A DNA stretch of 64,000 nucleotides, taken from positions 46,503,680 through 46,567,679 of the forward strand of contig NC_064841.1 in assembly GCF_024166365.1 (NCBI RefSeq), in the 5' to 3' direction. The stretch comes from Elephas maximus (lineage: Eukaryota). A model generated the notes under the pieces. That model saw only the letters and a list, made by a program, of their open reading frames with translations. It did no database searches and was not told the DNA's origin. This document shows positions 8,485 through 64,000 of the stretch, piece after piece (the first letter of the stretch is position 1; every line of letters starts with the position of its first letter). Position numbers and translations under genes: made by a program.

Positions 8485-10651
8485 TGAAATCACTGGGCTA
8501 AAGCGTGACCAACGCACCGCAACTCCAGAGTCACGCCATCTCCAACAGCCAGCTCCCACGCCATTTTCTTTTTCTTTTTTTCCCTTTATTCCATCTCTTT
8601 TTCCTTCCTACCTAGCCCTATACGCCACATTCCCCCTTTCCTCTGGGCCACACCACACCACTGTGGCTAGAGACCTACCAAACAACTGCTGCCCAGGGTC
8701 CACCCGGCCCCCACCCATCCCCTACCCACCATCTCCCACCAGACCATTTTTTAATTTTATTTCATTTTTTCCCTTTTTTTTTTCTTTCTCCCTCCCACCT
8801 AGCCCTATTTACCACCTCTACATCTTCCCACTGGGCCATGCCACAGCACATTGCCTAGAAGGCCACTGGCCCACCACCACCCTGGGTCAATCCCATGCAC
8901 ACCTGTCAGCTCCTGACATGCCACCATTTTTCTCCCTTTTACTCCTTTTCTTTCTCCCTACCACCTAGCCCTCTACACCACCTTCACCCCTTACTGCAAA
9001 CCCTCACTGCGTCACAGCAGCAAAAAGCCATCAGGCCACCACTGCCACAGGTCCGCCCTACCCCCACGTATTGGCTTCCATCAAAGTGCCTTTTTATTTG
9101 CTTTTTTTCCCCTCACATAACTGTCTCACAGAGCCCTCCCCTCACATATGTTACCTCCCCCCCTTCCCACTGGCCCTTGGGCACGTCCCGCCCCCACTCA
9201 CCAGCCCCCACCTTGCAGCCAGTTTTTTTTATTTCTTTCTTTTTCTTCATCTTCTTTTTCTTTCACACCTGCCCTGTACATCACCTTCCCCCTTCCCACC
9301 AGACCCTGCCACACTACCATGGCTAAAGAGCCACTGGTGTACTGGAACACCACTGCCCTGGGTCCACCCTAACCCCCTCTGATCCCCACCTTGCCACCAT
9401 ATTTTTCTTTATTTTTTCTTTCAACCTCCCACCTAACCACTGCATCACCTCCCCTCCTTTTGACCAGCCCCTGGGTCCACCATGCCCCCACTTTCTGGCC
9501 CTCACTGCATCACCATTTTTCCCCTTATTTCCTTTCTTATTTTTCTGTCTCCCCCCAAAACAGCTCCTTACACTACCTCCCACTATGTCCCAGAGGACCT
9601 GCCATGCTGCCACAAATAAAGTACCACTGGCACATCAACCTGAAGCTGCTCTGGGTCAGCTCCACCCCCACCCACTGGCCACCACTGTGTTGCCATATGT
9701 ATTTTTTCTTTTCCTTTTCTCTGTTTTCCTTCTACCTCCCACCTAGCCCTGTACACCGCCTCCCCCCCTTCCTGCTAGTCCCCAGTGCTACACACCCCCA
9801 CCTACTAGCTATCCTTTTTTTCTCCCTCTTTTCTTTCTCCCCCCTACCTTGCCCTGTATGCCACTCCCTTCCCACCGGCCCCCATAAAGCTGCTGCGCCT
9901 ACAGTATCCTCAGTGCAGAGGCCCACACTACCCCTCCCATTCTGCCACGAGAACAGCTGCTGAACACTGGGAAGTGAGCCTGTACCACTACTTGTCTTAT
10001 ACCTCCACTTATCTATCACGGGGCTGTAAATGCTCCCAAACTAATGGACCAACATCAGGAGGCAGACAGCATTTGCTCAGTTCTCCCTCAGCCACCTCAC
10101 CAAACCAACGAGGCAGGATCACCTGCCTACAGCTCCCCTGCCCACCCAGACAAGGTGGTGAGAGCTATCATCCATACATACAAGCAAGCAGAAAGGAATG
10201 CCTGACCCAACCGGCTGTGCTGACATATCAAAAAAAAAAACCAAAGAAGCAGAATAAAACAAATGAACATTACAATCAATAAATAAAGAAAATAATACCT
10301 TAAAGTCTCAGAGACAGCAGACAATATTAAAACACATAAAAATGCAAGACAAGAGGACTCCAGTGAGTGACCAAAATTAAGAATCACATGCCTTCCAGTA
10401 GAGAAGAAATGGTAGTGGAATTACCTGATATGGAATTCAAAACACTATTATTTAGGGCTCACTGAGAGATATCAGTAAGAAGATCAAAGAAAACACATAT
10501 GAAACCAAGAAAAAATAAGGCAAAATCATGCAAAACACAGATAAAAACCAATGAAAACATAGACAAAATCAAGGAAAACACAGAGAGAGCAATAAAAGAA
10601 TTCAGGAAAATAATAAAAGAACAAAACATAAGAAAAAATAAATGAAGGACA
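8485..10651 (+). mobile_element. L1 copy A (old), 5' part: monomeric 5' UTR, non-monomeric leader and ORF1 N-terminus; interrupted at 10651 by L1 B
   Basis: A tandem-monomer array is followed by a leader homologous to 48640-48800 and 50210-50300 of copy D. ORF1-like translation follows (..ELPDMEFKTLLF..KEFRKIIKEQNIRKNK). The sequence resumes in frame at 17041. Confidence 0.8.
8560..9950 (+). repeat. Tandem array of about 8-9 CT-rich monomers of roughly 150-165 bp (L1 A 5' UTR promoter monomers)
   Basis: The unit recurs as tttctttctccctcccacctagccct(a/g)tacaccacctcc...ctgggcca..ccac... Each unit carries a 40-60 nt polypyrimidine tract. The same monomer family recurs at 47700-48640. Confidence 0.75.
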
Positions 10652-29796: not shown

Positions 29797-29958
29797 CCAA
29801 ACCAAACCCACTGCCGTTGAGTCGATTCCGACTCATAGCGACCCTACAGGACAGAGGAGAACTGCCCCACAGAGTTTCCAAGAAGCGCCTCGTGGATTCA
29901 AACCGCCGACCTTTTGGTTAGCACCCGAAGCTCTTACCCAGTATGCCACCAGGGTTCC
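29797..29958 (-). mobile_element. AfroSINE (first of an adjacent pair)
   Basis: Reverse-complement tail (CAAAC)n, then CCACTGCCGTTGAGTCGATTCCGACTCATAGCGACCCTA...GGGTTCC. Confidence 0.8.
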
Positions 29959-29969
29959 CTCTATAATTA

Positions 29970-30140
29970 CAGGGATACAAAAACCAAAAAAACCCACTGC
30001 CACTGAGTCGATTTCGACTCATAGCGACCCTATAGGACAGAGTAGAACTGCCCCATAGCGTTTCCAAGGAGTGGCTGGTGGATTCGAACTGCCAGTCTTT
30101 TGGTTAGCAGGCTGAGCTCTTAACCACTGTGCCACCAGGG
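29970..30140 (-). mobile_element. AfroSINE (second of the pair)
   Basis: Same structure as the first. The flanks ctataattacaggga / caattatagagacagg resemble the flanks of the first copy. Confidence 0.8.
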
Positions 30141-30321
30141 CTCCAATTATAGAGACAGGTTAACTAAAATGTTTATAGGACATTCAGAGTTAAAAATAAC
30201 CAATGAAGGGGCTAAGGTCACCTTTAATTCAACATTTGTAGGAGAACTGAATCTTGAATTAGCCCAAATGATATAAAGGCACAGTTAAATTGGGAAGCTA
30301 TTGATATTTTATTGATACTTC

Positions 30322-35090: not shown

Positions 35091-36707
35091 GTCTCAAGGG
35101 AGTATTATCTAGACAACCACTACCCAATTATGGATGGTGCCCAGAAACAGACCAAGGTCTCCAAATTACGTTATTATTAACTTGTCTATTTGAAATCAAA
35201 TCTATACAGGAGGAAGATCTAATTGCCTCTTTAGATCAAAGTTTCTGGGGAAATTTTAAGGCAGCAGCCTGTTATCTATATGAGGTAGGAAGTGGACTAG
35301 TGTCAGAATTCAGACTACTGCTAATGGCTGGAGGAACTGAACATATAACATTTTTTGGATGGGATCAATGTCAGATTTATCATAATGGACAATATATCCA
35401 GGGAAAGAGGTGGAAGAAATACAGCATAGCTTATCATTATATCGAAAAGCTACCCCTTCCTCAGAACAAGATCAATGGAAAGCTGAAGGATATAAGATAA
35501 ATCAGCAAACAGGATTGTGGATGGGACTAAATAATCAGTATGTATTCTCTAAGGATTTACAGATCACAGGTGATACTAGTTTTCATTTAAGAGATCATTT
35601 AGAATGGGATAAGACAGTACAAACAATGAGGAAATACCACTGGGGTCACTTCTGGAGGGCTGCAGATAAGTTACTCAGGCAATGTCCAACCTGTGCTGAA
35701 TTTAATGCAGTGAAAGCACTCAGACCCCCTGTTGACAAGTACCCTTTTCCCATCAGACCTATGTTCAATAGGCAAATGGATTTTATTCCGTTAACTCCCT
35801 CACAGGGATACAAATATATATTCATCATGATTTGTAGATATTCTCATTGGGTACAGGTTTTTCCTTGTAGCAATGCCACTGCCACTTTTGTAGCAAAGAA
35901 GCTTTTAGAAAACAGAATTTCTACTTGGGGTACTCCAGGAATTCTCTGTAGTGGTTGAGGAACTCATTTTACTGGGCAAGCAGTAACCGCTATGTGCAAA
36001 ATTTTTCGCATTCTACAGAGCTTGCACTGTTCACATCGTCCCTGATCCTCAGGACTGGTGAAAAGAACCAATGGTATTATAAGAACCAATTAGCTGAATT
36101 AACCTCTTCATTAGGGCTGTCTTTGCCTCAAGCTTTTCCCTGGTGGTAATAAATTTAAGATCAACTCCCTTTGGTCCTCACAAGCTAACCCCTTTTGAAA
36201 TTATAACTGGTCGCCCTATGGCTTTACCTTATGGGGTTAAAAATATTGAGTCAAATTTCCTTTCCACTAATCTGTTAAAATATTGACAAGTACTAGTTCA
36301 ATACGCAAAAGATCATGCTTACCAGCTGCAACATGCATATCAAACAAGCACACCTGCTTCCAATTCTTCAAATTATAAAGCTGAACCAGGAGATTATGTG
36401 TACTGGAAACATCACCAAATTAAGAATTCTCTCAGACCTTAATGAAAAGGACCTTGTTTAGCTAATGATTTTGCGACTAAATTACAGGGAATAAAATCAT
36501 GGATCTAGCTCTTCCAGCCTAAGAAACCCAAAGTTCCTTAACGGGTTATTGAATCAGTAGGAGGATGAAAACTGAAGTTTAAAATCTGCCTGCAAACCAC
36601 CAGCAACTGTCCTCCACCAAGGGCCGAACATTCCCTCCAACCTATACCAGAAAGTGAAGAAATGGAAAATCCCTGGCTGAATTAGTAAGACTTATACGAA
36701 CTTACAG

Positions 36708-46427: not shown

Positions 46428-47699
46428 ATCATAATTAATTCAAATTTCCTTATATGTGTTTGCCTCCGGGATCCCCTAAATTTTGGAAAACTGTCCATTC
46501 GTGATGACTTATTAACCGCCACCTGGCTTAAAAGAGCCAATCAGTCCATTTCGTTTCCTGATATCCAAACTGGAAAAGGCATGTTATGTGCCCCATCTGG
46601 ACCTATTTTTTATGTGGAGGATCAACTTATGCAAGAAAAAAGTCCAATGATTCACCCTATACTTGGGCTTTGCCATGTTTAAATGGTTGCAGTATGATAG
46701 GCCAATGTACTTTAGGAATATTAGGAGTTCCCATGAGTACCCATTCATAAAATAACAGCTTTCCATGAAACACTGATTTAAAATTAATATCTATACAGAA
46801 GAGAAACCTCATCCTCTCAGGAATCCCATAGCTAATTACTCAGGGTGGGGACAGTCTTTCTTACATGCTATTATACCGTGGTTTAGGATGGGCAATTAGA
46901 AATGTCCATTTGCAATCTATTTGCCACCATGGGCCAAACTTATGATAGTGTTGCTAATGGAATGGCTACACAACAAAAATCTTTAGAATCCTTACCCAAG
47001 AGTTGTATTAGACAAAAGAATTGCCTTAAACTTTCTTTTAGCTCAGCAAGGAGGAGTCTGTCGCCAGTATCTCTTACTGTTCATGGATAAATAGCCTCAT
47101 GGCTGCATACCAATCCTCCCATAACAGTTTCTTCCTTCCCTGGTATTTTTAGCTGGTTACCCCAAAGTACTGAGTCTGGGATACACTCCTTTCTACTAGC
47201 CTGTCTGCTTCTTCTAATCATTGTAATTATTTTTATAAGACTTGTTTAAATAACGTTTTGTGTTTCTCATTGCCACAGCCAACCTGCAGGACATATGACC
47301 ATGCAACCAATTATGTATCTAGAAGAAACTACTTTCTCTAAAGAGGCTGAGGTTTAGTTCTGAAGCCAAACCCTTTCTGGAATACCAGTTATTCCTCTAA
47401 TATGGCTCTGTTCACGACACTCACCCCAACCAGAATTTACCCACCTTGAAGATGAAAATCAGAACTAAAGTCAGATGGTACCCAGTAGGCTGCTAAAAAA
47501 TCAAAATGATGTGCAGCTGCAAAAAGACAGCAACGAAGGTCTTAAAAGCTGCCAGAAGAATGGCCCATGTTCTCCAGCAAAAGCTCCCACCTCTGGAGTT
47601 CAGAGAGAAACACGGTGACATCCAGAATAGCCACCTAAAAATAGTGGCTTAAAGACTCCAGCCCTTCCCAGTGGGCCACGCCATGCCGCTCAGTGAGAC

Positions 47700-48640
47700 A
47701 CCAGCTTGCCACTACCCTGAGTCCACCCTGCCCCCACTGGCCAGCTCCCTCAGTGCCTTTTTTTTCCTCTTTCTTCCTTTTCTTTCTCCCTCCCACCTAG
47801 TCCCATGCGCTGCCTCCACCCCTTTCTGACAGGCTGTGCCACAACGTGCCACTCGTCTGGATAGGCACCAGCTGGCCATCACCCTGGGCCTACCTGCCCC
47901 TACCAACCAGCTCCCACTGTGCCATTTTTTTCTTTTTCCCTTTCTTCATCTATCACTGAACCACCTAGACCTGTACACCACCTCCACCCTGTCCCAGCGA
48001 TCCATGCCTCACCACCTTAGCTAGAGAGCCACCAGCCCCCAGCCACCCTGGGGGCGCCCTGACCCCACCTGCTGGCTCCCATCACCCTATTTTTTTGCTT
48101 TTGCTTGTTTCTTTCTTTTCTTTCCTCCTCCCATCTAGCTCTACATAGCACATCCCATTCCTTCCAACCAGCCCTCAGGTCCACAGGCCCCTATAGCACT
48201 GCCAGTTTTTTCTTTTTCTTTTCTCTTTCTTCCCTTTCCTTCCTCCCTCAGATGTAGCCCATACACCACCTTCCACATTGCTACCAGACTCCCCTGCACC
48301 ACCACAACTGGAGAGACACTAATTCACTGCTGCCCTGAGTCCAACACACCACCACTATGGTGTCACTTATTTTACATTTTTCTCTTTTCCTTCTACCTCC
48401 CACCTAGTCTCATACACTTCCCCCTTTTTCTATCTGGTCCCTGTGTTTACCCAGCCCCCACCCACCATCTGTTTTTTTAATCTTTCTCTCTCTTTTCTTT
48501 CTCCATCCCCCACCTAGCCTCATATGCCACCCCACCTCTCCTCCAACCTCCCAATATACCACTGCAACTAGAACATCCCCAGTGCTCAGGACTGCCAGCA
48601 CTCCAGGCCCACACTGCCCCCTTCACACCACTTGACCAGC
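47700..48640 (+). repeat. Tandem array of about 6 CT-rich ~150-170-bp L1 promoter monomers (same family as 8560-9950)
   Basis: Repeated ..tttctttctccctcccacctag(c/t)cc.ta.a.cacc..cc.. units. Confidence 0.7.
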
Positions 48641-49507
48641 TGCTGAACACTGGAAAGCAAGCCTGTACCACTCCCCATCTAAGACCCCCACCTATCTGAC
48701 AAGAGGATGTGAACATTCCCACACAGCCAGATCAACATCAGGAGGCAGACAGCACCTGCCCAGTCCACCCCCATCCACCTCACCAAACCAGTTGAAAAAT
48801 GGAACACTGGCCGTGTCTGACCTCCTGTAACTTCACAAGGGGGGAGGCCAGCCCAAGGATGATTTCTATGAGGCACAGTTCAGACATTCCCTGTCTCTCT
48901 GACATCTTTACCAATTCTGACATCAACTGTCCCACCCAAGATGCTCTCTACTTCTCTGCTGGGCTCAATACTTCATTGCAATGGCCACATGGAACTCACA
49001 GACAATGCTCACGATACTCACAATTGTGAGCTTTATGAGGGAAGTAACAGGTTACAATTCAGGCTCAGGAACACTCAGAATACAGTATCCATCAGGACAA
49101 ACTCTTTTCAGTTGTGCTTGCAGGCACACCTCTCTGTGGCCCTAGGCCTCTGCTGTGCTCAGGCAAGTACTACAAAGCACTTTTAGCCCCTGCCAATAAA
49201 TGACTGGTGGTACCCTACTCCATCAGTAAGCCTTGGCCCAAAGGAACTCAGCTTTCTTGCTCCATCGGCTGGGAAGTCTACTGCGTGGTCTCCTGCCAGT
49301 CTCTCATGCCACGACTTCTTGCCGTCTACAAGGTTACACCTTACTCTCCCTCTCAATCTCCTGGTTCCAGGAGCTCCTCAGCACAGGGATTCCAGGTTCA
49401 AAGGGTGCACTCTCTGCTCCTGGCTGTTCTTTCTTGGTGGTGGTGGGATTCTCTCTCTCCCACTTCTCGGATGGCTCACCTCAAGCCCAGCAGAATGGCA
49501 AAACTGA

Positions 49508-50023: not shown

Positions 50024-51639
50024 CACTGACCAATCCCTTTGGTGAACCACAATTAGCCTATTGGCACAGTCCTGCCCAATCACTGTGGTGGGAGTTAGAA
50101 AACCATGGAGAGAAAGGCCACACAAAAGCAATGCAATCCATCACACCACACCAGTGTACAGTGAAGTGGGCTTGCCCTGCCTACTTGCTGCCTGGCCCAC
50201 CTGAATAAGGTCGTGAGAACTATCATGACCACAGACGATCAAGCAGCAAAACACACCCGGCCAGCCCATCCTGACGTATCACAACAAAACAAAAAAGCAG
50301 GATAAAACATATGAACACACAATCAATCAATAAATAATACCTTAATGTCTCAAAGACAGCAAACAATATCGAAACATATAAACAAACAGGACAAGATGGC
50401 TCCAGGAAGTGACCAAATTAAAGAATCAGAGAACATTCTGGTAAAAGAAAAGGCAGTGGTACTATCTGATATGCAATTCAAAAGACAAATATTTGGGCCT
50501 CTCCAAGACATTCCAAGACATTAGGTAAGAAATCATGGAAAACACAGACAAAACCAACAATGAAAATATACCCAAAATCAAGGAAATCACAGATAAAGCA
50601 ATAGAAGAATTTAGTAAAATAACACAAGAACAGAAAACCAAAATAAATAAATTAGAAATCACATAAAAACAGAAACTAGAAACCCATAAGAAAAATATCA
50701 AAATTTGAGAAATGTACAACTCAATATAAGATTTTAGGAGCCAATTTGAAACAGTGGAAGACAGAATCAGCAAGTTTTAAAAAATCTATGGACGCCACTT
50801 TGAGGAAAAATCAGAGAAAAGAATGACAGAAACAAAGAATTATGTGGGACACATACAAGAGCAAAAATGTGCACATGATTAGAGTTCCAGAATAGGGGGA
50901 GAAGATGGAAAACACAGAGTAGATTGTTGAAGATTTGCTGGCACAAAACTCACCAAATATCATAAAAGATAAAAAAGTAACCATCCAAGAAGCTCAACAA
51001 ACCCCATATACATAAACCCTAAAAGAATGTCACCAACACATCATAATCACACTTGCCAAAATCAAAGACAAAGAATCCTGAGAGCAGCTCAAGAAAAATG
51101 AAGTCACTTACAAGGGGGTAAAAATAAGACTACTGTCTGATTACTCAGCAGACACTCTGCAGCAGGAAGATAATGGGATGGCATACACAAAACCATGGAA
51201 GAATAAAACTACCAACCAAGAATAATATATCCTGCAAAACTCTCTCTCAAATATGATAGTGAAATTAGGACTTTTCCAGAAAAACAGAAATTAAGGGAAT
51301 TCGCAAAAACCAAACCAAACTTACAAGAAATACTAAAGAGAGTCCCTCGGTTAGAGAACAAACACCATTAGACTACAACCAGAGTCTAGAACACAGGACA
51401 GCATCAGCCAGGTACCAACCTAGGTAAAGAACTCTCAATAATAAAACAAAGCTGGGGGCAGAGCCAAGATGGCGGACTAGGCAGACGCTACCTCGGATCC
51501 CTCTTACAACAAAGACACGGAAAAACAAGTGAATCGATCACATACATAACAATCTACGAACCCTGAACAACAAACACAGATTTAGAGACGGAGAACGAAC
51601 TAATACGGGGAAGCAGCGATTGTTTCCAGAGCCTGGAGC

Positions 51640-52240
51640 CAGCGTACCAGTCAGGTACGGCACAAGCACAGAGAGCTGCTCCACCCCCCTGAACTAACCC
51701 CGGGAGGGGGACCAGCCGGTTCCATGGGCGGCGTGGGACGCAGCCGGTAGGAGAAGTCCCCGGGAGGCAGTGACTGGTTCTGGAGCAGAAAGAGCAGCGT
51801 CCGAACCGGGGAACCATCCTGCAGGGATTTGGACTGGACGCAGGTACGGCATAAACACGGACAGTTGCTCCACCCCCCTGAACTAACCCCGGGAAGGGGA
51901 CCAGCCAGGTCGCGCGGGCGGCGTGGGACTCAGCCGGTAGGAGAAGTCCCCAGGAGGCAGCGACTGGTATTGGAGCGGGGAGAACAGCGTCCCAGCCGGG
52001 ACACTCGGTCACGGCACAAGCACGGGGAGCTGCTCCACCCATCTGAACTAACCCCGGGAAGAGGCCCAACTGGTTCTCGGGGAGGCATGGCCACGCGGCT
52101 GGAGGGACGAGAAGTCCCCGGGAGGCAGTGACTGATTTTGGAGTCGAGAGTGCACCGTCCCAGTAGGGGAGCCTTGACGCTGGGCGTGGGGCTGGAAGCA
52201 GAGGATCTGACCGTGACTCCAGCGGGCCAGACCCCCCGGG
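51640..52240 (+). promoter_or_regulatory. CpG-rich tandem monomers (~3 units of ~170-190 bp) in the L1 E 5' UTR, a putative L1 promoter
   Basis: (G)TACGGCA(C/T)AAGCAC.G..AG.TGCTCCACCC..CTGAACTAACCCCGGGA.G.G.CCA.C.GGT... repeated three times. It is very CpG-dense (ccggg, gcgg, cgcg), unlike the CT-rich monomers of copies A and D. Confidence 0.6.
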
Positions 52241-52491
52241 GGCAATCTCCACACAGCCAGCACACATAGGCGACGCACCCCCGGGAATCTCAGATATAAT
52301 AGTCATTCCAAGCAAGACAAGCAACTCTGGCTATATTCTGAGGTGCTACTCTCCTATCTCTCTGTTCCCTCCCCCACCCTCCCCAGGCGGCTTCATTAAA
52401 ATCTGAATAGCCTGAGCCAGAGGGAGAACTCTGATAGGGATCTGACTGCATTTTTTTTAACGGATTTTCTGGAAAAACTAGTTTCCCAGCG

Positions 52492-53509
52492 ATGGCTCGG
52501 AGACAACAATCCATATCAAACCACTTAAAGAAGCAGACCATGACAGCTTCTCCAACCCCCCAAACAAAAGAATCAAAATCTTTCCCAAATGAAGATACAA
52601 TCTTGGAATTATCAGATACAGAATATAAAAAACTAATTTACAGAATGCTTAATGATATCACAAATGAAATTAGGATAACTGCAGAAAAAGCCAAGGAACA
52701 CACTGTTAAAACTGTTGAAGAATTCAAAAACATTATTCAAGAACATACTGGAAAAATTAATAAGTTGCAAGAATCCATAGAGAGACAACATGTAGAAATC
52801 CAAAAGATTAACAATAAAATTACAGAATTAGACAACGCACTAGGAAGTCAGAGGAGCAGACTCGAGCAATTAGAATGCAGACTGGGACATCTGGAGGACC
52901 AGAGAATCAACACCAACATAGCTGAAAAAAAATCAGATAAAAGAATTAAAAAAAATGAAGAAACCCTAAGAATTATGTGGGACTCTATCAAGAAGGATAA
53001 CCTGCAGGTGATTGGAGTCCCAGAACAGGGAGCGGGGGACAGAAAACACAGAGAAAATAGTTGAAGAACTCCTGACAGAAAACTTCCCTGACATCATGAA
53101 AGACGAAAGGATATCTATCCAAGATGCTCATCGAACCCCATTTAAGATTGATCCAAAAAGAAAAACACCAAGACATATTATCATCAAACTCGCCAAAACC
53201 AAAGATAAACAGAAAATTTTAAAAGCAGCCAGGGAGAAAAGAAAGGTTTCCTTCAAGGAAGAATCAATAAGAATATGTTCTGACTACTCAGCAGAAACCA
53301 TGCAGGCAAGAACGGAATGGGACGACATATACAGAACACTGAAGGAGAAAAACTGCCAGCCAAGGATCATATATCCAGCAAAACTCTCTCTGAAATATGA
53401 AGGAGAAATTAAGATATTTACAGACAAACACAAGTTTAGAGAATTTGCAAAAACCAAACCGAAGCTACAAGAAATACTAAAGGATATTGTTTGGTCAGAA
53501 AACCAATAA
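52492..53509 (+). CDS. L1 E ORF1 (RNA-binding chaperone), complete apart from a single frameshift in a G-run at ~53035-53045
   Basis: ORF 52492-53064 (MARRQQSISNHLKKQT..coiled coil..VIGVPEQG) and ORF 53012-53509 (..TENTEKIVEELLTENFPDIMKDE..YPAKLSLKYEGEIKIFTDKHKFREFAKTKPKLQEILKDIVWSENQ*) overlap in different frames. Confidence 0.8.
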
Positions 53510-53970
53510 TATCAGATATCAGCACAACACAAGGTCACAAAACAGAACGTCCTGATATCAACTCAAATAGGGAAATCACAAAAACAAACAAATTAAGATT
53601 AATTAAAAAAAAAAAAATACACATAACAGGGAATCATGGAAGTCAATAGGTAAAAGATCACAATAATCAAAAAGAGGGACTAAATACAGGAGGCATTGAA
53701 CTGCCATATGGAGAGTGATACAAGGCGATATAGAACAATACAAGTTAGGTTTTTACTTAGAAAAATAGGGGTATATAATGAGGTAACCACAAAAAGGTAT
53801 AACAACTCTATAACTCAAGACAAAAACCAAGAAAAACGTAACGACTCAACTAACATAAAGTCAAACACTATGAAAATGAGGATCTCACAATTTACTAAGA
53901 AAAACGCCTCAGCACAAAAAAGTATGTGGAAAAATGAAATTATCAACAACACACATAAAAAGGCATCAAA

Positions 53971-56900
53971 ATGACAGCACTAAAAACTTACTTATCTATA
54001 ATTACCCTGAATGTAAATGGACTAAATGCACCAATAAAGAGACAGAGAGTCACAGACTGGATAAAGAAACACGATCCATCTATATGCTGCCTACAAGAGA
54101 CACACCTTAGACTTAGAGACTCAAATAAACTAAAACTCAAAGGATGGAAAAAAGTATATCAAGCAAACAATAAGCAAAAAAGAAGAGGAGTAGCAATATT
54201 AATTTCTGACAAAATAGACTTTAGACTTAAATCCACCACAAAGGATAAAGAAGGACACTATATAATGATAAAAGGGACAATTGATCAGGAAGACATAACC
54301 ATATTAAATATTTACGCACCCAATGACAGGGCTGCAAGATACATAAATCAAATTTTAACAGAACTGAAAAGCGAGATAGATACCTCCACAATTATAGTAG
54401 GAGACTTCAACACACCACTTTCGGAGAAGGACAGGACATCCAGCAAGAAGCTCAACAGAGACACGGAAGATCTAATTACAACAATCAACCAACTTGACCT
54501 CATTGACTTATACAGAACTCTCCACCCAACTGCTGCAAAATATACTTTTTTTTCCAGCGCACATGGAACATTCTCTAGAATAGACCACATATTAGGACAT
54601 AAAACAAACCTTTGCAGAGTCCAAAACATCGAAATATTACAAAGCATCTTCTCAGATCACAAGGCAATAAAACTAGAGATCAATAACAGAAAAACGAGGG
54701 AAAAGAAATCAAATACTTGGAAAATGAACAATACCCTCCTGAAAAAAGACTGGGTTATAGAAGACATCAAGGAGGGAATAAGGAAATTCATAGAAAGCAA
54801 CGAGAATGAAAATACTTCCTATCAAAACCTCTGGGACACAGCAAAAGCAGTGCTCAGAGGCCAATTTATATCAATAAATGCACACATACAAAAAGAAGAA
54901 AGAGCCAAAATCAGAGAACTGTCCCTACAACTTGAACAAATAGAAAGTGAGCAACAAAAGAATCCATCAGTCACCAGAAGAAAACAAATAATAAAAATTA
55001 GAGCTGAACTAAATGAATTAGAGAACAGAAAAACAATTGAAAGAATTAACAAAGCCAAAAGCTGGTTCTTTGAAAAAATTAACAAAATTGATAAACCATT
55101 GGCTAGACTGACTAAAGAAATACAGGAAAGGAAACAAATAACCCGAATAAGAAATGAGAAGGACCACATCACAACAGAACCAAATGAAATTAAAAGAATC
55201 ATTTCAGATTATTATGAAAAATTGTACTCTAACAAATTTGAAAACCTAGAAGAAATGGATGAATTCCTGGAAAAACACTACCTACCTAAACTAACACATT
55301 CAGAAGTAGAACAACTAAATAGACCCATAACAAAAAAAGAGATTGAAACGGTAATCAAAAAACTCCCAACAAAAAAAAGTCCTGGCCCGGACGGCTTCAC
55401 TGCAGAGTTCTACCAAATTTTCAGAGAAGAGTTAACACCACTACTACTAAAGGTATTCCAAAGCATAGAAAATGACGGAATACTACCCAACTCATTCTAT
55501 GAAGCCACCATCTCCCTGATACCAAAACCAGGTAAAGACATTACAAAAAAAGAAAATTATAGACCTATATCCCTCATGAACATTGATGCAAAAATCCTCA
55601 ACAAAATTCTAGCCAATAGAATCCAACAACACATCAAAAAAATAATTCACCCTGATCAAGTGGGATTTATACCAGGTATGCAAGGCTGGTTTAATATCAG
55701 AAAAACCATTAATGTAATCCATCACATAAATAAAACAAAAGACAAAAACCACATGATCTTATCAATTGATGCAGAAAAGGCATTTGACAAAGTCCAACAC
55801 CCATTCATGATAAAAACTCTTACCAAAATAGGAATTGAAGGAAAATTCCTCAACATAATAAAGGGCATCTATGCAAAGCCAACAGCCAATGTCACTCTAA
55901 ATGGAGAGAACCTGAAAGCATTTCCCTTGAGAACGGGAACCAGACAAGGATGCCCTTTATCACCGCTCTTATTCAACATCGTGTTGGAAGTCTTAGCCAG
56001 GGCAATCAGGCTAGACAAAGAAATAAAAGGTATCCGGATTGGCAAGGAAGAAGTAAAGTTATCACTATTTGCAGATGACATGATTATATACACAGAAAAC
56101 CCTAAGGAATCCTCCAGAAAACTACTGAAACTAATAGAAGAGTTTGGCAGAGTCTCAGGTTATAAAATAAACATACAAAAATCACTTGGATTCCTCTACA
56201 TCAACAAAAAGAACACCGAAGAGGAAATAACCAAATCAATACCATTCACAATAGCCCCCAAGAAGATAAGATACTTAGGAATAAATCTTACCAAGGATGT
56301 AAAAGACCTATACAAAGAAAACTACAAAGCTCTACTACAAGAAATTCAAAAGGACATACTTAAGTGGAAAAACATACCTTGCTCATGGATAGGAAGACTT
56401 AACATAGTAAAAATGTCTATTCTACCAAAAGCCATCTATACATTTAACGCACTTCCGATCCAAATTCCAATGTCATATTTTAAGGGGATAGAGAAACAAA
56501 TCACCAATTTCATATGGAACGGAAAGAAGCCCCGGATAAGCAAAGCACTACTGAAAAAGAAGAAGAAAGTGGGAGGCCTCACCTTACCTGACTTCAGAAA
56601 CTATTATACAGCCACAGTAGTCAAAACAGCCTGGTATTGGTACAACAACAGACACATAGACCAATGGAACAGAATTGAGAACCCAGACATAGATCCATCC
56701 ACGTATGAGCAGCTGATATTTGACAAAGGACCAGTGTCAATTAACTGGGGAAAAGATAGCCTTTTTAACAAATGGTGCTGGCATAACTGGATATCCATTT
56801 GCAAAAAAATGAAACAGGACCCATACCTCACACCATGCACAAAAACTAACTCCAAGTGGATCAAAGACCTAAACATAAAGACTAAAACGATAAAGATCAT

Positions 56901-57786
56901 GGAAGAAAAAATTGGGACAACCCTAGGAGCCCTAATACAAGGTATAAACAGAATACAAAACATTACCAAAAATGATGAAGAGAAACCCGATAACTGGGAG
57001 CTCCTAAAAATCAAACACCTATGCTCATCTAAAGACTTCACCAAAAGAGTAAAAAGACCACCTACAGATTGGGAAAGAATTTTCAGCTATGACATCTCCG
57101 ACCAGCGCCTGATCTCTAAAATCTACATGATTCTGTCAAAACTCAACCACAAAAAGACAAACAACCCAATCAAGAAGTGGGCAAAGGATATGAACACACA
57201 TTTCACTAAAGAAGATATTCAGGCAGCCAACAGATACATGAGAAAATGCTCTCGATCATTAGCCATTAGAGAAATGCAAATTAAAACTACGATGAGATTC
57301 CATCTCACACCAGCAAGGCTGGCATTAATCCAAAAAACACAAAATAATAAATGTTGGAGAGGCTGCGGAGAGATTGGAACTCTCATACACTGCTGGTGGG
57401 AATGTAAAATGGTACAACCACTTTGGAAATCTATCTGGCGTTATCTTAAACAGTTAGAAATAGAACTACCATACAACCCAGAAATCCCACTCCTAGGAAT
57501 ATACCCTAGAGATACAAGAGCCTTCATACAAACAGATATATGCACACCCATGTTTATTGCAGCTCTGTTTACAATAGCAAAAAGTTGGAAGCAACCAAGG
57601 TGTCCATCAACGGATGAATGGGTAAATAAATTGTGGTATATTCACACAATGGAATACTACGCATCGATAAAGAACAGTGACGAATCTGTGAAACATTTCA
57701 TAACATGGAGGAACCTGGAAGGCATTATGCTGAGCGAAATTAGTCAGAGGCAAAAGGACAAATATTGTATAAGACCACTATTATAA
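53971..57786 (+). CDS. L1 E ORF2: intact endonuclease / reverse transcriptase / Cys-rich protein (1271 aa)
   Basis: A single uninterrupted ORF. EN N-terminus [35 protein letters not shown] motifs ..[16 protein letters not shown].., LFADDMIIY, and a C-terminal [20 protein letters not shown]ys-rich domain. Confidence 0.9.
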
Positions 57787-58780
57787 GATCTTGAGAAATA
57801 GTAAACCTGAGAAGAACACATACTTTTGTGGTTACGAGGGGGGGAGGGAGGGAGGGTGGGAGAGGGTTTTTTATTGATTAATCAGTAGATAAGAACTGCT
57901 TTAGGTGAAGGGAAAGACAACACTCAATACATGGAAGGTCAGCTCAATTGGACTGGACCAAAAGCAAAGAAGTTTCCGGGATAAAATGAATGCTTCAAAG
58001 GTCAGCGGAGCAAGCGCGGGGGTCTGGGGAACATGGTTTGCGGGGACTTCTAAGTCAATTGGCAAAATAATTCTATTATGAAATCATTCTGCATCCCACT
58101 TCGAAATGTGGCGTCTGGGGTCTTAAATGCTAACAAGCAGCCATCTAAGATGCAGCAATTGGTCTCAACCCACCTGGAGCAAAGGAAAATGAAGAACACC
58201 AAGCCCACATGACAACTAAGAGCCCAAGAGACAGAAAGGGCCACATGAACCAGAGACCTACATCTTCCTGAGACCAGAAGAACTAGTTGGTGCCCGGCCA
58301 CAATCGATGACTGCCCTGACAGGGAGCTCAGCAGAGGACCCCTGAGGGAGCAGGAGATCAGTGGGATGCAGACCCCAAATTCTCATAACAAGACCAAACT
58401 TAATGGTCTGACTGAGACTGGAGGAATCCCGGCGGCCATGCTCCCCAGACCTTCAGCTGACACAGGACAGGAACCATCCCCGAAGACAACTCTTCAGAAA
58501 TGAAAGGGACTGGTCAGCGGGTGGGAGAGAGATGCTGATGAAGAGTGAGCTAATTATATCAGGTGGACACTTGAGATTGTGTTGGCAACTCTTGCCTGGA
58601 GGGGGGATGGGAGGATAGAGAGAGAGGGAAGCCGGCAAAATTGTCAAGAAAGGAGAGACTGAAAGGGCTGACTCAAGACGGGGAGAGTAAGTGGGAGTAG
58701 GGAGTGAGATGTATGTAAACTTATATGTGACAGACTGATTGGATTTGTAAACGTTCACTTGAAGCTTAATAAAAGTTATT

Positions 58781-58801
58781 ATAAAAAAAAAAAAAAAAAA
58801 A
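58781..58801 (+). repeat. Poly(A) tail of L1 E (21 nt), the junction with L1 F
   Basis: TTATAAAAAAAAAAAAAAAAAAAAAGCAGCC. F begins immediately, inside ORF1. Confidence 0.9.
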
Positions 58802-61800
58802 AAGCAGCCAGGGAGAAAAGAAAGGTTTCCTTCAAGGAAGAATCAATAAGAATATGTTCTGACTACTCAGCAGAAACCATGCAGGCAAGAACGGAATGGG
58901 ACGACATATACAGAACACTGAAGGAGAAAAACTGCCAGCCAAGGATCATATATCCAGCAAAACTCTCTCTGAAATATGAAGGAGAAATTAAGATATTTAC
59001 AGACAAACACAAGTTTAGAGAATTTGCAAAAACCAAACCGAAGCTACAAGAAATACTAAAGGATATTGTTTGGTCAGAAAACCAATAATATCAGATACCA
59101 ACACAACACAAGGTCACAAAACAGAACGTCCTGATAGCAACTCAAATAGGGAAATCACAAAAACAAACAAATTAAGATTAATTAAAAAAAAATACACATA
59201 ACAGGGAATCATGGAAGTCAATAGGTAAACGATCACAATAATCAAAAAGAGGGACTAAATACAGGAGGCATTGAACTGCCAGATGGAGAGTGATACAAGG
59301 CGATATAGAACAATACAAGTTAGGTTTTCACTTAGAAAAATAGGGGTAAATAATGAGGTAACCACAAAAAGGTATAACAACTCTATAACTCAAGATAAAA
59401 ACCAAGAAAAACGTAACGACTCAACTAACACAAAGTCAAGCACTATGAAAATGAGGATCTCACAATTTACTAAGAAAAACGCCTCAGCACAAAAAAGTAC
59501 GTGGAAAAATGAAATTGTCAACAACACACATAAAAAGGTATCAAAATGACAGCACTAAAAACTTATTTATCTATAATTACCCTGAATGTAAATAGACTAA
59601 ATGCACCAATAAAGAGACAGAGAGTCACAGACTGGATAAAGAAACACGATCCATCTATATGCTGCCTACAAGAGACACACCTTAGACTTAGAGACACAAA
59701 CAAACTAAAACTCAAAGGATGGAAAAAAGTATATCAAGCAAACAATAAGCAAAAAAGAAGAGGAGTAGCAATATTAATTTCTGACAAAATAGACTTTAGA
59801 CTTAAATCCACCACAAAGGATAAAGAAGGACACTATACAATGATAAAAGGGACAACTGATCAGGAAGACATAACCATATTAAATATTTATGCACCCAATG
59901 ACAGGGCTGCAAGATACATAAATCAAATTTTAACAGAATTGAAAAGCGAGATAGATAACTCCACAATTATAGTAGGAGACTTCAACACACCACTTTCGGA
60001 GAAGGACAGGACATCCAGTAAGAAGCTCAACAGAGACACGGAAGATCTAATTACAACAATCAACCAACTTGACCTCATTGACTTATACAGAACTCTCCAC
60101 CCAACTGCTGCAAAATATACTTTTTTTTCTAGCGCACATGGAACATTCTCTAGAATAGACCACATATTAGGTCATAAAACAAACCTTTGCAGAGTCCAAA
60201 ACATTGAAATATTACAAAGCATCTTCTCAGACCACAAGGCAATAAAACTAGAGATCAGTAACAGAAAAACTAGGGAAAAGAAATCAAATACTTGGAAAAT
60301 GAACAATACCCTCCTGAAATACACTGGGTTATAGAAGACATCAAGGAGGGAATAAGGAAATTCAAAGAAAGCAACGAGAATGAAAATACTTCCTATCAAA
60401 ACCTCTGGGACACAACAAACGCAGTGCTCAAAGGCCAATTTAAATCAATAAATGCACACATACAAAAAGAAGAAAGAGCCAAAATCAGAGAACTGTCCCT
60501 ACTACTTGAACAAATAGAAAGTGAGCAACAAAATAATCCATCAGGCACCAGAAGAAAACAAATCATAAAAATTAGAGCTGAACTAAATGAATTAGAGAAC
60601 AGAAAAACAATTGAAAGAATTAACAAAGCCAAAAGCTGGTTCTTTGAAAAAATTAACAAAATTGATAAACCATTGGCTAGACTGACTAAAGAAATACAGG
60701 AAAGGAAACAAATAACCCGAATAAGAAATGAGAAGGACCACATCACAACAGAACCAAATGAAATTAAAAGAATCATTTCAGATTATTATGAAAAATTGTA
60801 CTCTAACAAATTTGCAAAACTAGAAGAAATGGATGAATTCCTGGAAAAACACTACCTACCTAAACTAACACATTCAGAAGTAGAACAACTAAATAGACCC
60901 ATAACAAAAAAAGAGATTGAAACGGTAATCAAAAAACTCCCAACAAAAAAAAGCCCTGGCCCGGACGGCTTCACTGCAGAGTTCTACCAAACTTTCAGAG
61001 AAGAGTTAACACCACTACTACTAACGGTATTCCAAAGCATAGAAAATGATGGAATACTACCCAACTCATTCTATGAAGCCACCATCTCCCTGATACCAAA
61101 ACCAGGTAAAGACATTACAAAAAAAGAAAATTATAGACCTATATCCCTCATGAACATTGATGCAAAAATCCTCAACAAAATTCTAGCCAATAGAATCCAA
61201 CAACACATGAAAAAAATAATTCATTCTGATCAAGTGGGATTTACACCAGGTATGCAAGGCTGGTTTAATATCAGAAAAACCATTAATGTAATCCATCACA
61301 TAAATAAAACAAAAGACAAAAACCACATGATCTTATCAATTGATGCAGAAAAGGCATTTGACAAAGTCCAACACCCATTCATGATAAAAACTCTTACCAA
61401 AATAGGAATTGAAGGAAAATTCCTCAACATAATAAAGGGCATCTATGCAAAGCCAACAGCCAATATCACTGTAAATGGAGAGAACCTGAAAGCATTTCCC
61501 TTGAGAACGGGAACCAGACAAGGATGCCCTTTATCACCGCTCTTATTCAACATCGTGTTGGAAGTCTTAGCCAGGGCAATTAGGCTAGACAAAGAAATAA
61601 AAGGTATCCGGATTGGCAAGGAAGAAGTAAAGTTATCACTATTTCCAGATGACATGATTATATACACAGAAAACCCTAAGGAATCCTCCAGAAAACTACT
61701 GAAACTAATAGAAGAGTTTGGCAGAGTCTCAGGTTATAAAATAAACATACAAAAATCACTGGGATTCCTCTACATCAACGAAAAGAACACCGAAGAGGAA

Positions 61801-64000
61801 ATAACCAAATCAATACCATTCACAGTAGCCCCCAAGAAGATAAGATCCTTAGGAATAAATCTTACCAAGGATGTAAAAGACCTATACAAAGAAAACTACA
61901 AAGCTCTACTACAAGAAATTCAAAAGGATATGCTTAAGTGGAAAAACATACCCTGCTCATGGATAGGAAGACTTAACATAGTAAAAATGTCTATTCTACC
62001 AAAAGCTATCTATACATTTAACCCACTTCCGATCCAAATTCCAATGTCATATTTTAAGGGGATAGAGAAACAAATCACCAATTTCATATAGAAGGGAAAG
62101 AAGCCCCGGATAAGCAAAGCACTACTGAAAAAGAAGAAGAAAGTGGGAGGCCTCACCTTACCTGACTTCAGAACCTATTATACAGCCACAGTAGTCAAAA
62201 CAGCCTGGTATTGGTACAACAACAGGCACACAGACCAATGGAACAGAATTGAGAACCCAGACATAGATCCATCCACGTATGAGCAGCTGATATTTGACAA
62301 AGGACCAGTGTCAATTAACTGGGGAAAAGATAGCCTTTTTAACAAATGGTGCTGGCATAACTGGATATCCATTTGCAAAAAAATGAAACAGGACCCATAC
62401 CTCACACCATGCACAAAAACTAACTCCAAGTGGACCAAAGACCTAAACATAAAGACTAAAACGATAAAGATCATGGAAGAAAAAATAGGGACAACCCTAG
62501 GAGCCCTAATACAAGGTATAAACAGAATACAAAACATTACCAAAAATGATGAAGAGAAGCCCGATAACTGGGAGCTCCTAAAAATCAAACACCTATGCTC
62601 ATCTAAAGACTTCTCCAAAAGAGTAAAAAGACCACCTACAGATTGGGAAAGAATTTTCAGCTATGACATCTCCGACCAGCGCCTGATCTCTAAAATCTAC
62701 ATGGTTCTGTCAAAACTCAACCACAAAAAGACAAACAACCCAATCAAGAAGTGGGCAAAGGATATGAACACACATTTCACTAAAGAAGATATTCAGGCAG
62801 CCAACAGATACATGAGAAAATGCTCTCGATCATTAGCCATTAGAGAAATGCAAATTAAAACTATGATGAGATTCCATCTCACACCAGCAAGGCTGGCATT
62901 AATCCAAAAAACACAAAATAATAAATGTTGGAGAGGCTGCGGAGAGATTGGAACTCTCATACACTGCTGGTGGGAATGTAAAATGGTACAACCACTTTGG
63001 AAATCTATCTGGCGTTATCTTAAACAGTTAGATATAGAACTACCATACAACCCAGAAATCCCACTCCTAGGAATATACCCTAGAGATACAAGAGCCTTCA
63101 TACAAACAGATATATGCACACCCATGTTTATTGCAGCTCTGTTTACAATAGCAAAAAGCTGGAAGCAACCAAGGTGTCCATCAACAGATGAATGGGTAAA
63201 TAAATTGTGGTATATTCACACAATGGAATACTACGCATCGATAAAGAACAGTGACGAATCTGTGAAACATTTCATAACATGGAGGAACCTGGAAGGCATT
63301 ATGCTGAGCGAAATGAGTCAGAGGCAAAAGGACAAATATTGTATAAGACCACTATTATAAGATCTTGAGAAATAGTAAACCTGAGAAGAACACATACTTT
63401 TGTGATTACGAGGGGGGGAGGGAGGGAGGGTGGGAGAGGGTTTTTTATTGATTAATCAGTAGATAAGAACTGCTTTAGGTGAAGGGAAAGACAACACTCA
63501 ATACATGGAAGGTCAGCTCAATTGGACTGGACCAAAAGCAAAGTTTCCGGGATAAAATGAATGCTTCAAAGGTCAGCGGAGCAAGCGCGGGGGTCTGGGG
63601 AACATGGTTTGAGGGGACTACTAAGTCAATTGGCAAAATAATTCTATTATGAAAACATTCTGCATCCCACTTTGAAATGTGGCGTCTGGGGTCTTAAATG
63701 CTAACAAGTGGCCATCTAAGATACATCAATTGGTCTCAACCCACCTGGAGCAAAGGAAAATGAAGAACACCAAGGCCACACGACAACTAAGAGCCTAAGA
63801 GACAGAAAGGGCCACATGAACCAGAGACCTACATCATCCTGAGACCAGAAGAACTAGTTGGTGCCCGGCCACAATCAATGACTGCCCTGACAGGGAGCAC
63901 AGCAGAGGACCCCTGAGGGAGCAGGAGATCAGTGGGATGCAGACCCCAAATTCTCATAAAAAGACCAAACTTAATGGTCTGACTGAGACTGGAGGAATCC
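58802..64000 (+). mobile_element. L1 copy F: 5'-truncated (begins in ORF1 at the position equivalent to 53215 of E), ~96-98% identical to E; ORF2 broken by at least two lesions; runs into its 3' UTR at the window end
   Basis: ORF1 C-terminus 58802-59088 is identical in protein to E's. ORF2 is split into 59546-60334, 60292-62091 and 62143-63360, with a 9-bp to 5-bp change at ~60325 and TGG to TAG at ~62090. The 3' UTR is colinear with 57787-58430 of E. Confidence 0.9.
59546..63360 (+). pseudogene. L1 F ORF2, frameshifted and stop-containing
   Basis: See the L1 F entry. Otherwise colinear with E ORF2. Confidence 0.85.

Follow-up and report, generated by a model that had tools for sequence, protein, structure and literature searches.

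A young, near-intact L1 copy with a frameshifted ORF1, and its truncated sister, in the Asian elephant genome

The question raised by this locus is whether a full-length L1 element of the Asian elephant (Elephas maximus), with a long uninterrupted ORF2, could still move on its own. The window, meaning the whole stretch of DNA analyzed, is 64,000 nucleotides long. It contains a full-length L1 of 7.35 kb at positions 51454-58803 (+), with its parts in the order 5'UTR, ORF1, intergenic region, ORF2, 3'UTR, AATAAA, and poly(A). This element is a young, near-intact, yet as assembled non-autonomous L1 copy. An Afrotherian origin of the sequence is supported by its best named matches, which are to Loxodonta africana and Elephas maximus, and by seven AfroSINE cores in the window (zero expected). 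The features of the element and its surroundings are as follows.

50817-51453 (+): left flank, ORF1 and intergenic sequence left from an old L1 (~74%), host of the insertion of the young element(s); ends ...ATAATAAAACAAAGCT
51454-52491 (+): 5'UTR, 1038 nt, 58.6% GC, 58 CpG, CpG o/e 0.65; starts GGGGGCAGAGCCAAGATGGCGGA
51465-51473 (+): YY1 box CAAGATGGC, placed by sequence, with the consensus and YY1 taken from PMC5381506
51652-52201 (+): about three ~190-bp monomers within the 5'UTR, two at 86% identity and the third at ~75%
52492-53509 (+): ORF1, 338 codons and a stop after removal of one base; coiled coil, RRM, CTD
53033 (+): inserted C, +1 shift of ORF1; interrupts a G6 run, premature stop at 53062-53064
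53311-53313 (+): ORF1 codon 274 encodes Thr (ACG) where human ORF1p has R262; also in the sister, Arg or Lys in other proboscidean copies
53510-53970 (+): ORF1-ORF2 intergenic region, AT-rich, 461 nt
53971-57786 (+): ORF2, 1271 aa, uninterrupted; EN, RT, C-terminal Cys motif
57787-58782 (+): 3'UTR, ~995 nt; G-rich polypurine tract at ~57836-57866, AATAAA at 58768-58773
58783-58803 (+): poly(A), 21 A; the last four A are alternatively part of AAAAGCAGCC of the sister or target
58804-64000 (+): sister L1, 5'-truncated; begins at the ORF1 equivalent of ~53223-53227 and runs past the window end

Termini, architecture, and relatives

The mammalian L1 5' consensus is G2-6(A/C)G2AGNCAAGATGGCGGA (PMC5381506). 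The sequence GGGGGCAGAGCCAAGATGGCGGA at 51454-51476 differs from it by one mismatch, outside the YY1 box, and a G5 run opens at 51454. The same start offset, 9 nucleotides before GCCAAGATGG, is present in L003 (CM057419.1), an independent full-length elephant copy from Loxodonta africana in which a target-site duplication (TSD) of its own defines the 5' end. The first-pass annotation had described a full 5'UTR starting at the canonical terminus. The consensus match and the L003 offset agree with this, with the start corrected from 51455 to 51454. The 21-nucleotide length it gave for the poly(A) also stands, and the end it gave, 58801, is two nucleotides short.

The monomers of the 5'UTR are reported by TRF as a period of 190 with 1.8 copies. 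Self-BLAST matches 51652-51995 to 51841-52163, and 51657-51843 to 52011-52201. The elephant 5'UTR motif has been described as triplicated (PMC5381506), although that paper describes motifs of ~70-100 bp in general, compared with ~190 bp here.

The element is a mammalian LINE-1. It has EN, RT, and CCHC in ORF2, a Transposase_22-type ORF1 that is interrupted once, the 5' consensus, and the 3'UTR features. Its architecture matches the elephant L1 family as described in print. Shared features are the YY1-box 5' terminus, the GC- and CpG-rich 5'UTR, the triplicated motif, an ORF1 of ~1 kb and an ORF2 of ~3.8 kb, a repeat-free AT-rich intergenic region of several hundred nucleotides, a 3'UTR of ~995 versus 994 bp, and the polypurine tract, which is conserved in mammals (PMC5381506). 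Long intergenic regions (423-719 bp) occur in elephant, hyrax, opossum, and pig L1, and elephant and human ORF2 are 61.9% identical in the same source, compared with ~60-64% between the window copy and boreoeutherian ORF2s. The window copy differs from the family in its ORF1 +1 frameshift and in the Thr at the R262 equivalent.

Human L1PA1/L1Hs (L1.3 and L1RP; ORF2p 8uw3, 8sxt, and 8c8j, ORF1p 2ykp) has the same domain order, with N14, E43, D145, N147, D205, H230, D600, FADD 700-703, and the CCHC at equal positions. ORF1p is 338 aa in both, and both have a YY1 box, a poly(A), and a 3'UTR polypurine tract. The human L1 intergenic region is 63 bp long. It is put at about 40 bp in PMC5381506, and in either case differs from the 461 nucleotides found here. 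Further differences are a 5'UTR that is unrelated after the first ~25 nucleotides and carries monomers, a 3'UTR ~5 times longer, a PIP-box Gln replaced by Lys in all proboscidean copies seen (IKRIISDYY), and the frameshifted ORF1.

Among individual copies, the closest to the element are the sister (98.0%) and L002, an ENA contig with an intact ORF1 (96.5% nt). Both are closer than two Loxodonta africana copies, L001 (CM057421.1; 92% aa, 92.4% nt over 3.8 kb) and L003 (89.6% nt over 6.4 kb). The 5'UTR of L003 agrees with that of the element over its first ~130 nucleotides but has a different body; L003 also has a clean 13-nucleotide TSD and is an older subfamily member. L001 is also an older subfamily member and is 5'-truncated.

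The best reading, with a probability of roughly 87%, is a germline-fixed or segregating insertion from the youngest L1 family of proboscideans, which is the single elephant family that Boissinot and Sookdeo (2016) describe. They built its "active or recently active" consensus from at least 8 full-length copies at <2% divergence (PMC5381506). The family is delimited as a monophyletic cluster with terminal branches of <2%; the private branch of the window copy, with four copies for comparison, is ~0.7%. For the Asian elephant, a 2025 preprint counts 4,143 full-length L1 copies that are ≤5% diverged (PMC12424770). An earlier remark that Afrotherian genomes are known mainly through their old repeats fails for elephants on both sources.

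Coding capacity and age

The alignment of ORF2 to human ORF2p (8uw3) is full-length, residues 1-1268 of the query to 1-1269 of the chain, and Pfam identifies Exo_endo_phos (E 1.9e-24) and RVT_1 (E 3.8e-48). A 3.8-kb open frame with full-length ORF2p homology is beyond chance. The EN residues N14, E43, Y115, D145, N147, D205, and H230 are present, as are D600 and FADD 700-703 of the RT, and a CX3CX7HX4C motif starts at residue 1128. The uninterrupted 1271-aa ORF2 with EN, RT, and Cys-rich domains noted at first pass is thus confirmed by the open frame, the Pfam matches, and the ORF2p alignment. The copy differs from 45 near-invariant columns of mammalian ORF2, and 44 of these differences are common to other proboscidean copies. 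The remaining one, I641V, is the sole copy-specific ORF2 change at a position conserved across mammals. All of the EN, RT, and Cys-motif residues checked are kept, and ORF2 has lost no catalytic or mammal-invariant residue. ORF2 is predicted from these comparisons to be functional, being intact and undamaged by copy-specific change at conserved catalytic sites.

ORF1 is in a different state. As assembled it runs from 52492 to 53064 (190 aa) and continues in a second frame to 53509. Removal of one base restores a single 338-aa ORF1 with no further stop, so the number of frame breaks is one. The repaired ORF1 matches Transposase_22 (PF02994, E 4.7e-18) and Tnp_22_dsRBD (PF17490, E 7.8e-25), with a weak, under cut-off match to the trimerisation domain (PF17489). 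Its match to human ORF1p 2ykp has an E value of 1.6e-57 and covers the RRM and CTD, and its identity to the intact relative P0121 is 95%. The truncated product is a coiled-coil stub of 190 aa that lacks the entire CTD and most of the RRM.

The lesion reads GGAG[C]GGGGGACA, where an intact relative has GGAGGGGGGACA in the DNA alignment. The break had been described as a single 1-nucleotide frameshift in a G-run. It is the sole frame break, but the extra C interrupts the run and leaves its length unchanged; a sequencing artefact would be expected to alter homopolymer length. In pairwise and multiple DNA alignments, the C at 53033 is missing from all four other copies that cover the site (L002, L003, and the old fragments in the window near 23.5 kb and 50.9 kb). 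It is therefore copy-specific and probably a real mutation.

A second feature of ORF1 is the Thr at codon 274. The YPAKLS motif is kept, and ART is present instead of ARR at the R261/R262 equivalent. In human ORF1p, R261/R262 are tied to nucleic-acid binding and chaperone activity, and an RR-to-AA mutant is inactive (PMC9410894, PMC11260458). To judge from this correspondence, the Thr may itself impair ORF1p.

The CpG o/e of the 5'UTR compares with 0.18-0.24 in old L1 and in the whole window. Measured against the sister and an outgroup, private divergence of the element is 32 changes in ~4700 polarised sites (~0.7%). The private ORF2 changes are 9 nonsynonymous and 10 synonymous (dN/dS ~0.32, p=0.012 versus neutrality). 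Since these changes look selected, much of the small divergence predates insertion. The chance of an open ORF2 would be ≤3% had neutral decay been ≥0.57%. With 19 coding substitutions, and with assumed values for both the neutral rate and the omega of the selected lineage, the rough age is 1-4 Myr. The CpG ratio, the low share of private sites, the 9N:10S ratio, and the retained ORF2 residues all bear out the first-pass description of the copy as young and near-intact. The element would have arisen from an active progenitor's full-length L1 mRNA by target-primed reverse transcription (TPRT) roughly 1-4 Myr ago.

The sister copy and the head-to-tail junction

The sister (alignment 58800-64000) is 98.04% identical to the element over 5209 nucleotides, with 94 mismatches and three gap openings; this is the top of the ~96-98% range first suggested for a copy directly downstream. 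Its ORF2 has a 1-nucleotide deletion (equivalent to 54742), a stop at W849, and FPDD for FADD, and it is a dead copy of the same subfamily. Its private ORF2 changes are 21 nonsynonymous and 9 synonymous. The contrast with the element is not significant (9N:10S versus 21N:9S, Fisher p=0.14), while P(N≥21 of 30) is 0.0105 if the sister had the element's omega of 0.32. The sister appears to have decayed longer than the element.

The poly(A) of 51454-58803 is followed by the sister L1, and comparison of that sequence with the left flank (...AAAACAAAGCT) revealed no TSD. The element therefore lacks one of the classical marks of a clean TPRT insertion. A composite TSD, if any, would fall past the window end.

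The reading of the tandem that survives best, at a little short of even odds, is that the sister inserted first and the full-length copy later, at the EN-consensus TTTT/AAAAG, either within the sister or on its edge. Variants of it include an insertion-mediated deletion of the 5' portion of the sister, or a blunt 5' junction without a TSD. TTTT/AAAAGCAGCC in L1 ORF1, a near-perfect L1 EN target, is the exact site of the 3' junction, and the sister is seemingly older by dN/dS and lesion count. The missing TSD counts against two successive insertions, which also require that at least 1.8 kb was deleted or that the insertion point coincides with the sister's truncation point.

A single insertion of both copies, with one TSD pair around a 12.9-kb composite, is unlikely but deserves weight. 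TPRT would begin on the sister RNA, and the nascent cDNA (…CTTTT-3') would jump at ORF1 UUUUAAAAG to the poly(A) of a second, full-length L1 RNA, which would then be copied up to the cap. Both copies point the same way, head to tail, the poly(A) abuts the sister at an A4 microhomology, and no TSD is seen for the element alone. The end of the left flank, ATAAT/AAAACAAAGCT, is an EN-like site and could be the composite TSD. Template switching has been given as the origin of same-orientation chimeras in which a full-length 5' partner is joined to a 5'-truncated L1 as 3' partner (bioRxiv 10.1101/2025.02.02.635956). The known U6/L1 and Alu/L1 chimeras share this arrangement and a microhomology junction, but here the 5' partner is a polyadenylated full-length L1. 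They are also defined by a flanking TSD, and the 3' end of the window pair falls outside the window. Against a single event, the sister's ORF2 changes look neutral and those of the element look selected, which suggests longer decay of the sister. The sister RNA could alternatively have come from an already-decayed source.

Either an assembly artefact, for example a mis-join or collapse involving two young L1 loci, or rearrangement after insertion, for example by non-allelic recombination among L1 copies, is improbable. Kilobase-long young repeats at 98% identity are a classic substrate for mis-assembly and ectopic recombination, and the element has no TSD, but the poly(A) runs cleanly into ORF1 sequence at an A-run, which looks retrotranspositional, and the 94 substitutions are evenly spread along the copies, with no collapsed or switched segment seen.

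Retrotransposition competence

L1 retrotransposition needs ORF1p in cis (see also PMC10202459). A competent L1 has both ORFs open; here ORF2 is open and ORF1 is frameshifted. The copy would thus supply no functional ORF1p and would be unable to retrotranspose autonomously. If transcribed, it could do no more than provide ORF2p in trans, or depend on inefficient rescue by the ORF1p of other copies.

The first-pass annotation had proposed the copy as a candidate for a currently active retrotransposon, and this does not hold for the copy as assembled, given the copy-specific frameshift and the 190-aa ORF1p. It had also held that an ORF1 frameshift absent from other copies, together with altered catalytic residues in ORF2, would argue that the copy is dead. 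The first half of this is what was found, in four of four copies, and the EN and RT FADD residues are all kept, in alignments to human ORF2p and proboscidean copies.

That the locus is nevertheless competent, the C at 53033 being an assembly or polishing error or a private haplotype mutation with intact alleles segregating, is a long shot. The element is one base short of two fully open ORFs, its ORF2 is free of copy-specific damage, its 5'UTR CpG island and YY1 box are intact, and assemblies can err in G-rich runs such as the one that holds the lesion. Yet a C placed into a G-run without change of length is not a typical homopolymer error, and the Thr at the R262 equivalent may be damaging in its own right. 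At ~0.2-0.4% neutral decay, moreover, roughly 30-45% of copies should carry one disabling hit in an ORF1 of 1 kb, which makes a real mutation the simpler reading.

There is a slim chance of one of two outcomes: either the extra C is an error or private allele and the Thr is tolerated, giving an active progenitor in a living proboscidean, or the 12.9-kb pair is a single L1-to-L1 template switch. A competent locus would be a live, possibly "hot", elephant L1, and a template switch onto the poly(A) that copied a complete second L1 would represent a natural case in which template jumping yielded a full-length L1. Recent elephant L1 activity is already documented, and the family of the window copy is already known. 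The element is an example of that young family, and is neither a new kind of element nor a demonstrated "hot" L1.

Architecture and family of the element

The element is a full-length LINE-1 of 7,350 bp with the following parts.

Features of the element
51454-58803 (+), whole element
5'UTR (+), 1038 nt, 58.6% GC, 58 CpGs, CpG o/e 0.65
5'UTR monomers (+), about three of ~190 bp
52492-53509 (+), ORF1, split in the assembly
Intergenic region between ORF1 and ORF2 (+), 461 nt
53971-57786 (+), ORF2, 1271 aa
3'UTR (+), ~995 nt, with a G-rich polypurine tract at ~57836-57866 and AATAAA at 58768
58783-58803 (+), A-run, 21 nt

The first bases are GGGGGCAGAGCCAAGATGGCGGA. They fit G2-6(A/C)G2AGNCAAGATGGCGGA, the consensus 5' start of almost all mammalian L1s (PMC5381506), and the YY1 box is exact. 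The 5' end of L003, an independent Loxodonta africana genomic copy (CM057419.1), is set by its own 13-nt TSD. This copy starts 9 nt before GCCAAGATGG, the same offset as in the element, which is therefore full-length to the nucleotide. The first-pass annotation gave 51455 as the start; the full 5' terminus holds, but the G5 run opens one base earlier, at 51454. The 21-nt poly(A) that it reported is present, but ends at 58803, 2 nt past the stated end of the element. For comparison with the 5'UTR, the CpG o/e is 0.18 in old L1 sequence of the window and 0.24 in the window overall.

An antisense ORF of 256 aa, opening with TTG, spans the 5'UTR monomers (51554-52324, -). It has no Pfam match and, given this, the TTG start, and the GC-rich repeats, an ORF0-like gene was rejected. 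The ORF most likely results from the scarcity of stops in GC-rich repeats.

Among named proteins, the closest are models of Loxodonta africana and Elephas maximus that contain L1 ORFs. NCBI elephant models made largely of, or including, L1 ORF1/ORF2 include zyg-11 homolog B isoform X1, GNB1L isoform X1, NUP42 isoform X1, and LOC126084693 (tied here to L001 and P0014, and to P0123, P0124, and P0126); they are likely annotation chimeras with L1. At the DNA level, the element is 92.4% identical to L001 (Loxodonta, CM057421.1), 89.6% to L003 over 6.4 kb, and 96.5% to L002. The last is a 2434-bp metagenome-assembly contig (ENA ERZ18707846 NODE_2706), presumably host (proboscidean) DNA inside the metagenome sample. 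The match spans 5'UTR to ORF2 start, and the contig is the only source of a close intact ORF1. With the EN region as query, the best homology match was 87%, and full-length ORF2 gave one elephant match at 92%, in a protein collection that under-samples elephant repeats. The exact 1271-aa ORF2 sequence had no match in public assemblies, and P0126, an Elephas model with an ORF1, returned no record.

Boissinot and Sookdeo (2016) described just one elephant L1 family that is active or was so recently, with a consensus from at least 8 full-length copies at <2% divergence, a 3'UTR of 994 bp, an intergenic region that is long and free of repeats, and three repeats of a motif in the 5'UTR (PMC5381506). 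The element agrees with each of these structural features. For the Asian elephant, a 2025 preprint gives 4,143 full-length copies with a divergence of <=5% (PMC12424770). Ivancevic (2016) listed four Afrotherians as L1-extinction candidates and nevertheless showed a Loxodonta RT family. Recent elephant L1 activity is already established. The element belongs to a known family and is well preserved.

State of ORF1 and ORF2

ORF1 in the assembly is a 190-aa frame (52492-53064) followed by a second frame up to 53509. Removal of one base gives a single 338-aa ORF1 with no further stop, which has the length of human ORF1p and is 95% identical to the uninterrupted ORF1 of the relative P0121. In the DNA alignment, CAGGGAG-GGGGGACAG in the relative corresponds to CAGGGAGCGGGGGACAG in the element, which places an additional C at 53033, where it splits a G6 run. 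The single 1-nt frameshift previously described is therefore present. It does not alter the length of a G-run, and a G-run length error was rejected as its cause by the alignment. The check for a copy-specific frameshift proposed in the first-pass annotation was carried out. The C occurs in the element only and in 0 of 4 other copies (L002, L003, and two old L1 fragments within the window), so the insertion is copy-specific. The assembled product is a coiled-coil stub missing most of the RRM and the entire CTD.

ORF1 codon 274, equivalent to human R262, is ACG (Thr) in both the element (53311-53313) and the sister, the 5'-truncated L1 directly downstream (58890-58892). It encodes Arg (AGG) in L002 and Lys (AAG) in L003. 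The Thr predates both insertions. R262 is part of the ARR motif, the target of the mutation in the well-known inactive construct RR261-262AA (PMC11260458, PMC9410894), and the shared Thr may possibly alter function.

ORF2 is open over 1271 aa, and its alignment with human ORF2p (8uw3, 8sxt) spans residues 1 to 1268. Pfam EN and RT domains are detected, and N14, E43, Y115, D145, N147, D205, H230, D600, FADD (700-703), and the CX3CX7HX4C motif are all retained. The complete ORF2 with EN, RT, and Cys-rich domains claimed earlier is thus confirmed. ORF2 was further compared with four proboscidean DNA copies projected onto codons and 14 other aligned mammalian ORF2 proteins. It departs from the mammalian residue at 45 columns that are nearly invariant. 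In 44, one or more of the other proboscidean copies share its residue, which makes them lineage traits, and the conservative I641V is the one copy-specific change among the 45. Ten residues, all of them non-catalytic, are unlike every other proboscidean copy available at the site, and V761I among them returns to the mammalian consensus. Judged from its residues, the ORF2p looks functional.

The PIP box (PCNA-interaction) at ORF2 residues 407-415 (55189-55215) reads IKRIISDYY, with Lys in place of the canonical Gln of the human box (QTTIREYY). The same Lys occurs in the sister and in the Loxodonta copy P0014, and it is therefore a trait of the lineage rather than damage.

A competent L1 is, by the basic definition, one with ORF1 and ORF2 both open. 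With ORF1 frameshifted, the element as assembled falls outside this definition unless the C is artefactual, and its earlier proposal as a candidate active retrotransposon is not upheld. An artefactual C, which would leave both ORFs open, is very improbable.

From established L1 biology, possible residual roles of the frameshifted element are supply of ORF2p in trans or inefficient trans-complementation. The AfroSINE core motif GAGTCGATTCCGACTCATAGCGACCCTA was found seven times in the window with up to 3 mismatches, against none expected by chance.

AfroSINE cores
29804-30144, including a 186-bp tandem dimer
21872, 30435, 43977, 45752, and 46387, further cores

The seven cores support an Afrotherian origin. 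Mobilisation of AfroSINEs by an ORF2-only copy was rejected, and they are not expected clients of the element, because their partners are RTE/Bov-B LINEs and not L1 (PMC6007223).

Age, the sister copy, and the junction

The sister (58804-64000, +) is 98.04% identical to the element over 5209 nt and adjoins its poly(A), in line with the ~96-98% identical downstream copy first reported. Its start corresponds to ~53223-53227 in the element's ORF1, and it extends past the window end, with its poly(A) expected at ~64,380, ~380 nt further on. Its lesions are a 1-nt deletion, a stop at W849, and FADD changed to FPDD.

Differences between the two copies were polarised by L001 (54967-58429) and L002 (53221-54470). 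Over ~4700 polarised sites, the element has 32 private substitutions and the sister 47, and the branch lengths are alike (0.7% versus 1.0%). The private ORF2 changes of the element are 9 nonsynonymous and 10 synonymous (dN/dS about 0.32; p=0.012 against a neutral expectation of 74% nonsynonymous), and those of the sister 21 and 9 (dN/dS about 0.83). The pattern in the element indicates that most of its small private divergence arose under selection in the active lineage. Post-insertion decay would then be only about 0.15-0.37% of sites, which at 1-2.2e-9 substitutions/site/year suggests a rough age of 1-4 Myr with a wide margin of error. Had neutral decay reached at least 0.57%, a 3.8-kb ORF2 would be unlikely (<=3%) to stay open, and at 0.2-0.35% one disabling ORF1 hit is unremarkable. 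The dN/dS values of the copies differ with a Fisher p of only 0.14, which sustains neither a clearly equal nor a clearly different age for the sister.

The left flank of the element is an old L1 fragment ending ATAAT/AAAACAAAGCT. On the right, the poly(A) passes straight into the sister at TTTT/AAAAGCAGCC, an L1-endonuclease-like site. Both the left boundary and the right one, poly(A)/GCAGCC (the TTTTAAAAGCAGCC site of the sister), resemble L1 endonuclease sites. No TSD was found for the element alone in the flanks 51440-51453 and 58783-58815. Either template switching or nested insertion plus a deletion is compatible with the junction pattern. Later insertion of the element into or beside the sister, with a deletion or blunt junction, is slightly favoured because the sister looks older. 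A single template-switch event producing both copies is a rather doubtful alternative. Same-orientation chimeras are recognised to form by template switching (bioRxiv 10.1101/2025.02.02.635956). Mis-assembly or later rearrangement of the head-to-tail pair is unlikely.

Two C/T-rich blocks (47600-48800 and 8800-10100) have strongly negative GC skew and ~70% mutual similarity. Both lie a short distance upstream of old + strand L1 bodies, at 50.0-51.45 kb and ~10.5-17 kb, respectively. The blocks probably represent the 5'UTR of an older L1 family, which would put the young pair within an old full-length L1, in its intergenic region. Elsewhere, a 182-aa ORF (35410-35958, +) has weak integrase zinc-finger and integrase core matches, both below Pfam cut-offs, and is probably what is left of a degraded pol of an endogenous retrovirus.

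Significance

The element matters little beyond annotation, as the family consensus, low-divergence full-length copies, and recent activity are already documented. Its main use is as a clean family exemplar, full-length to the nucleotide and with ORF2 undamaged. The head-to-tail junction offers a small test case for telling template switching from nested insertion. With the frameshift removed, and possibly T274 changed to R, the element could template a synthetic elephant L1 for retrotransposition assays, which would be relevant to elephant retrogene expansion, for example of the TP53 retrogenes.
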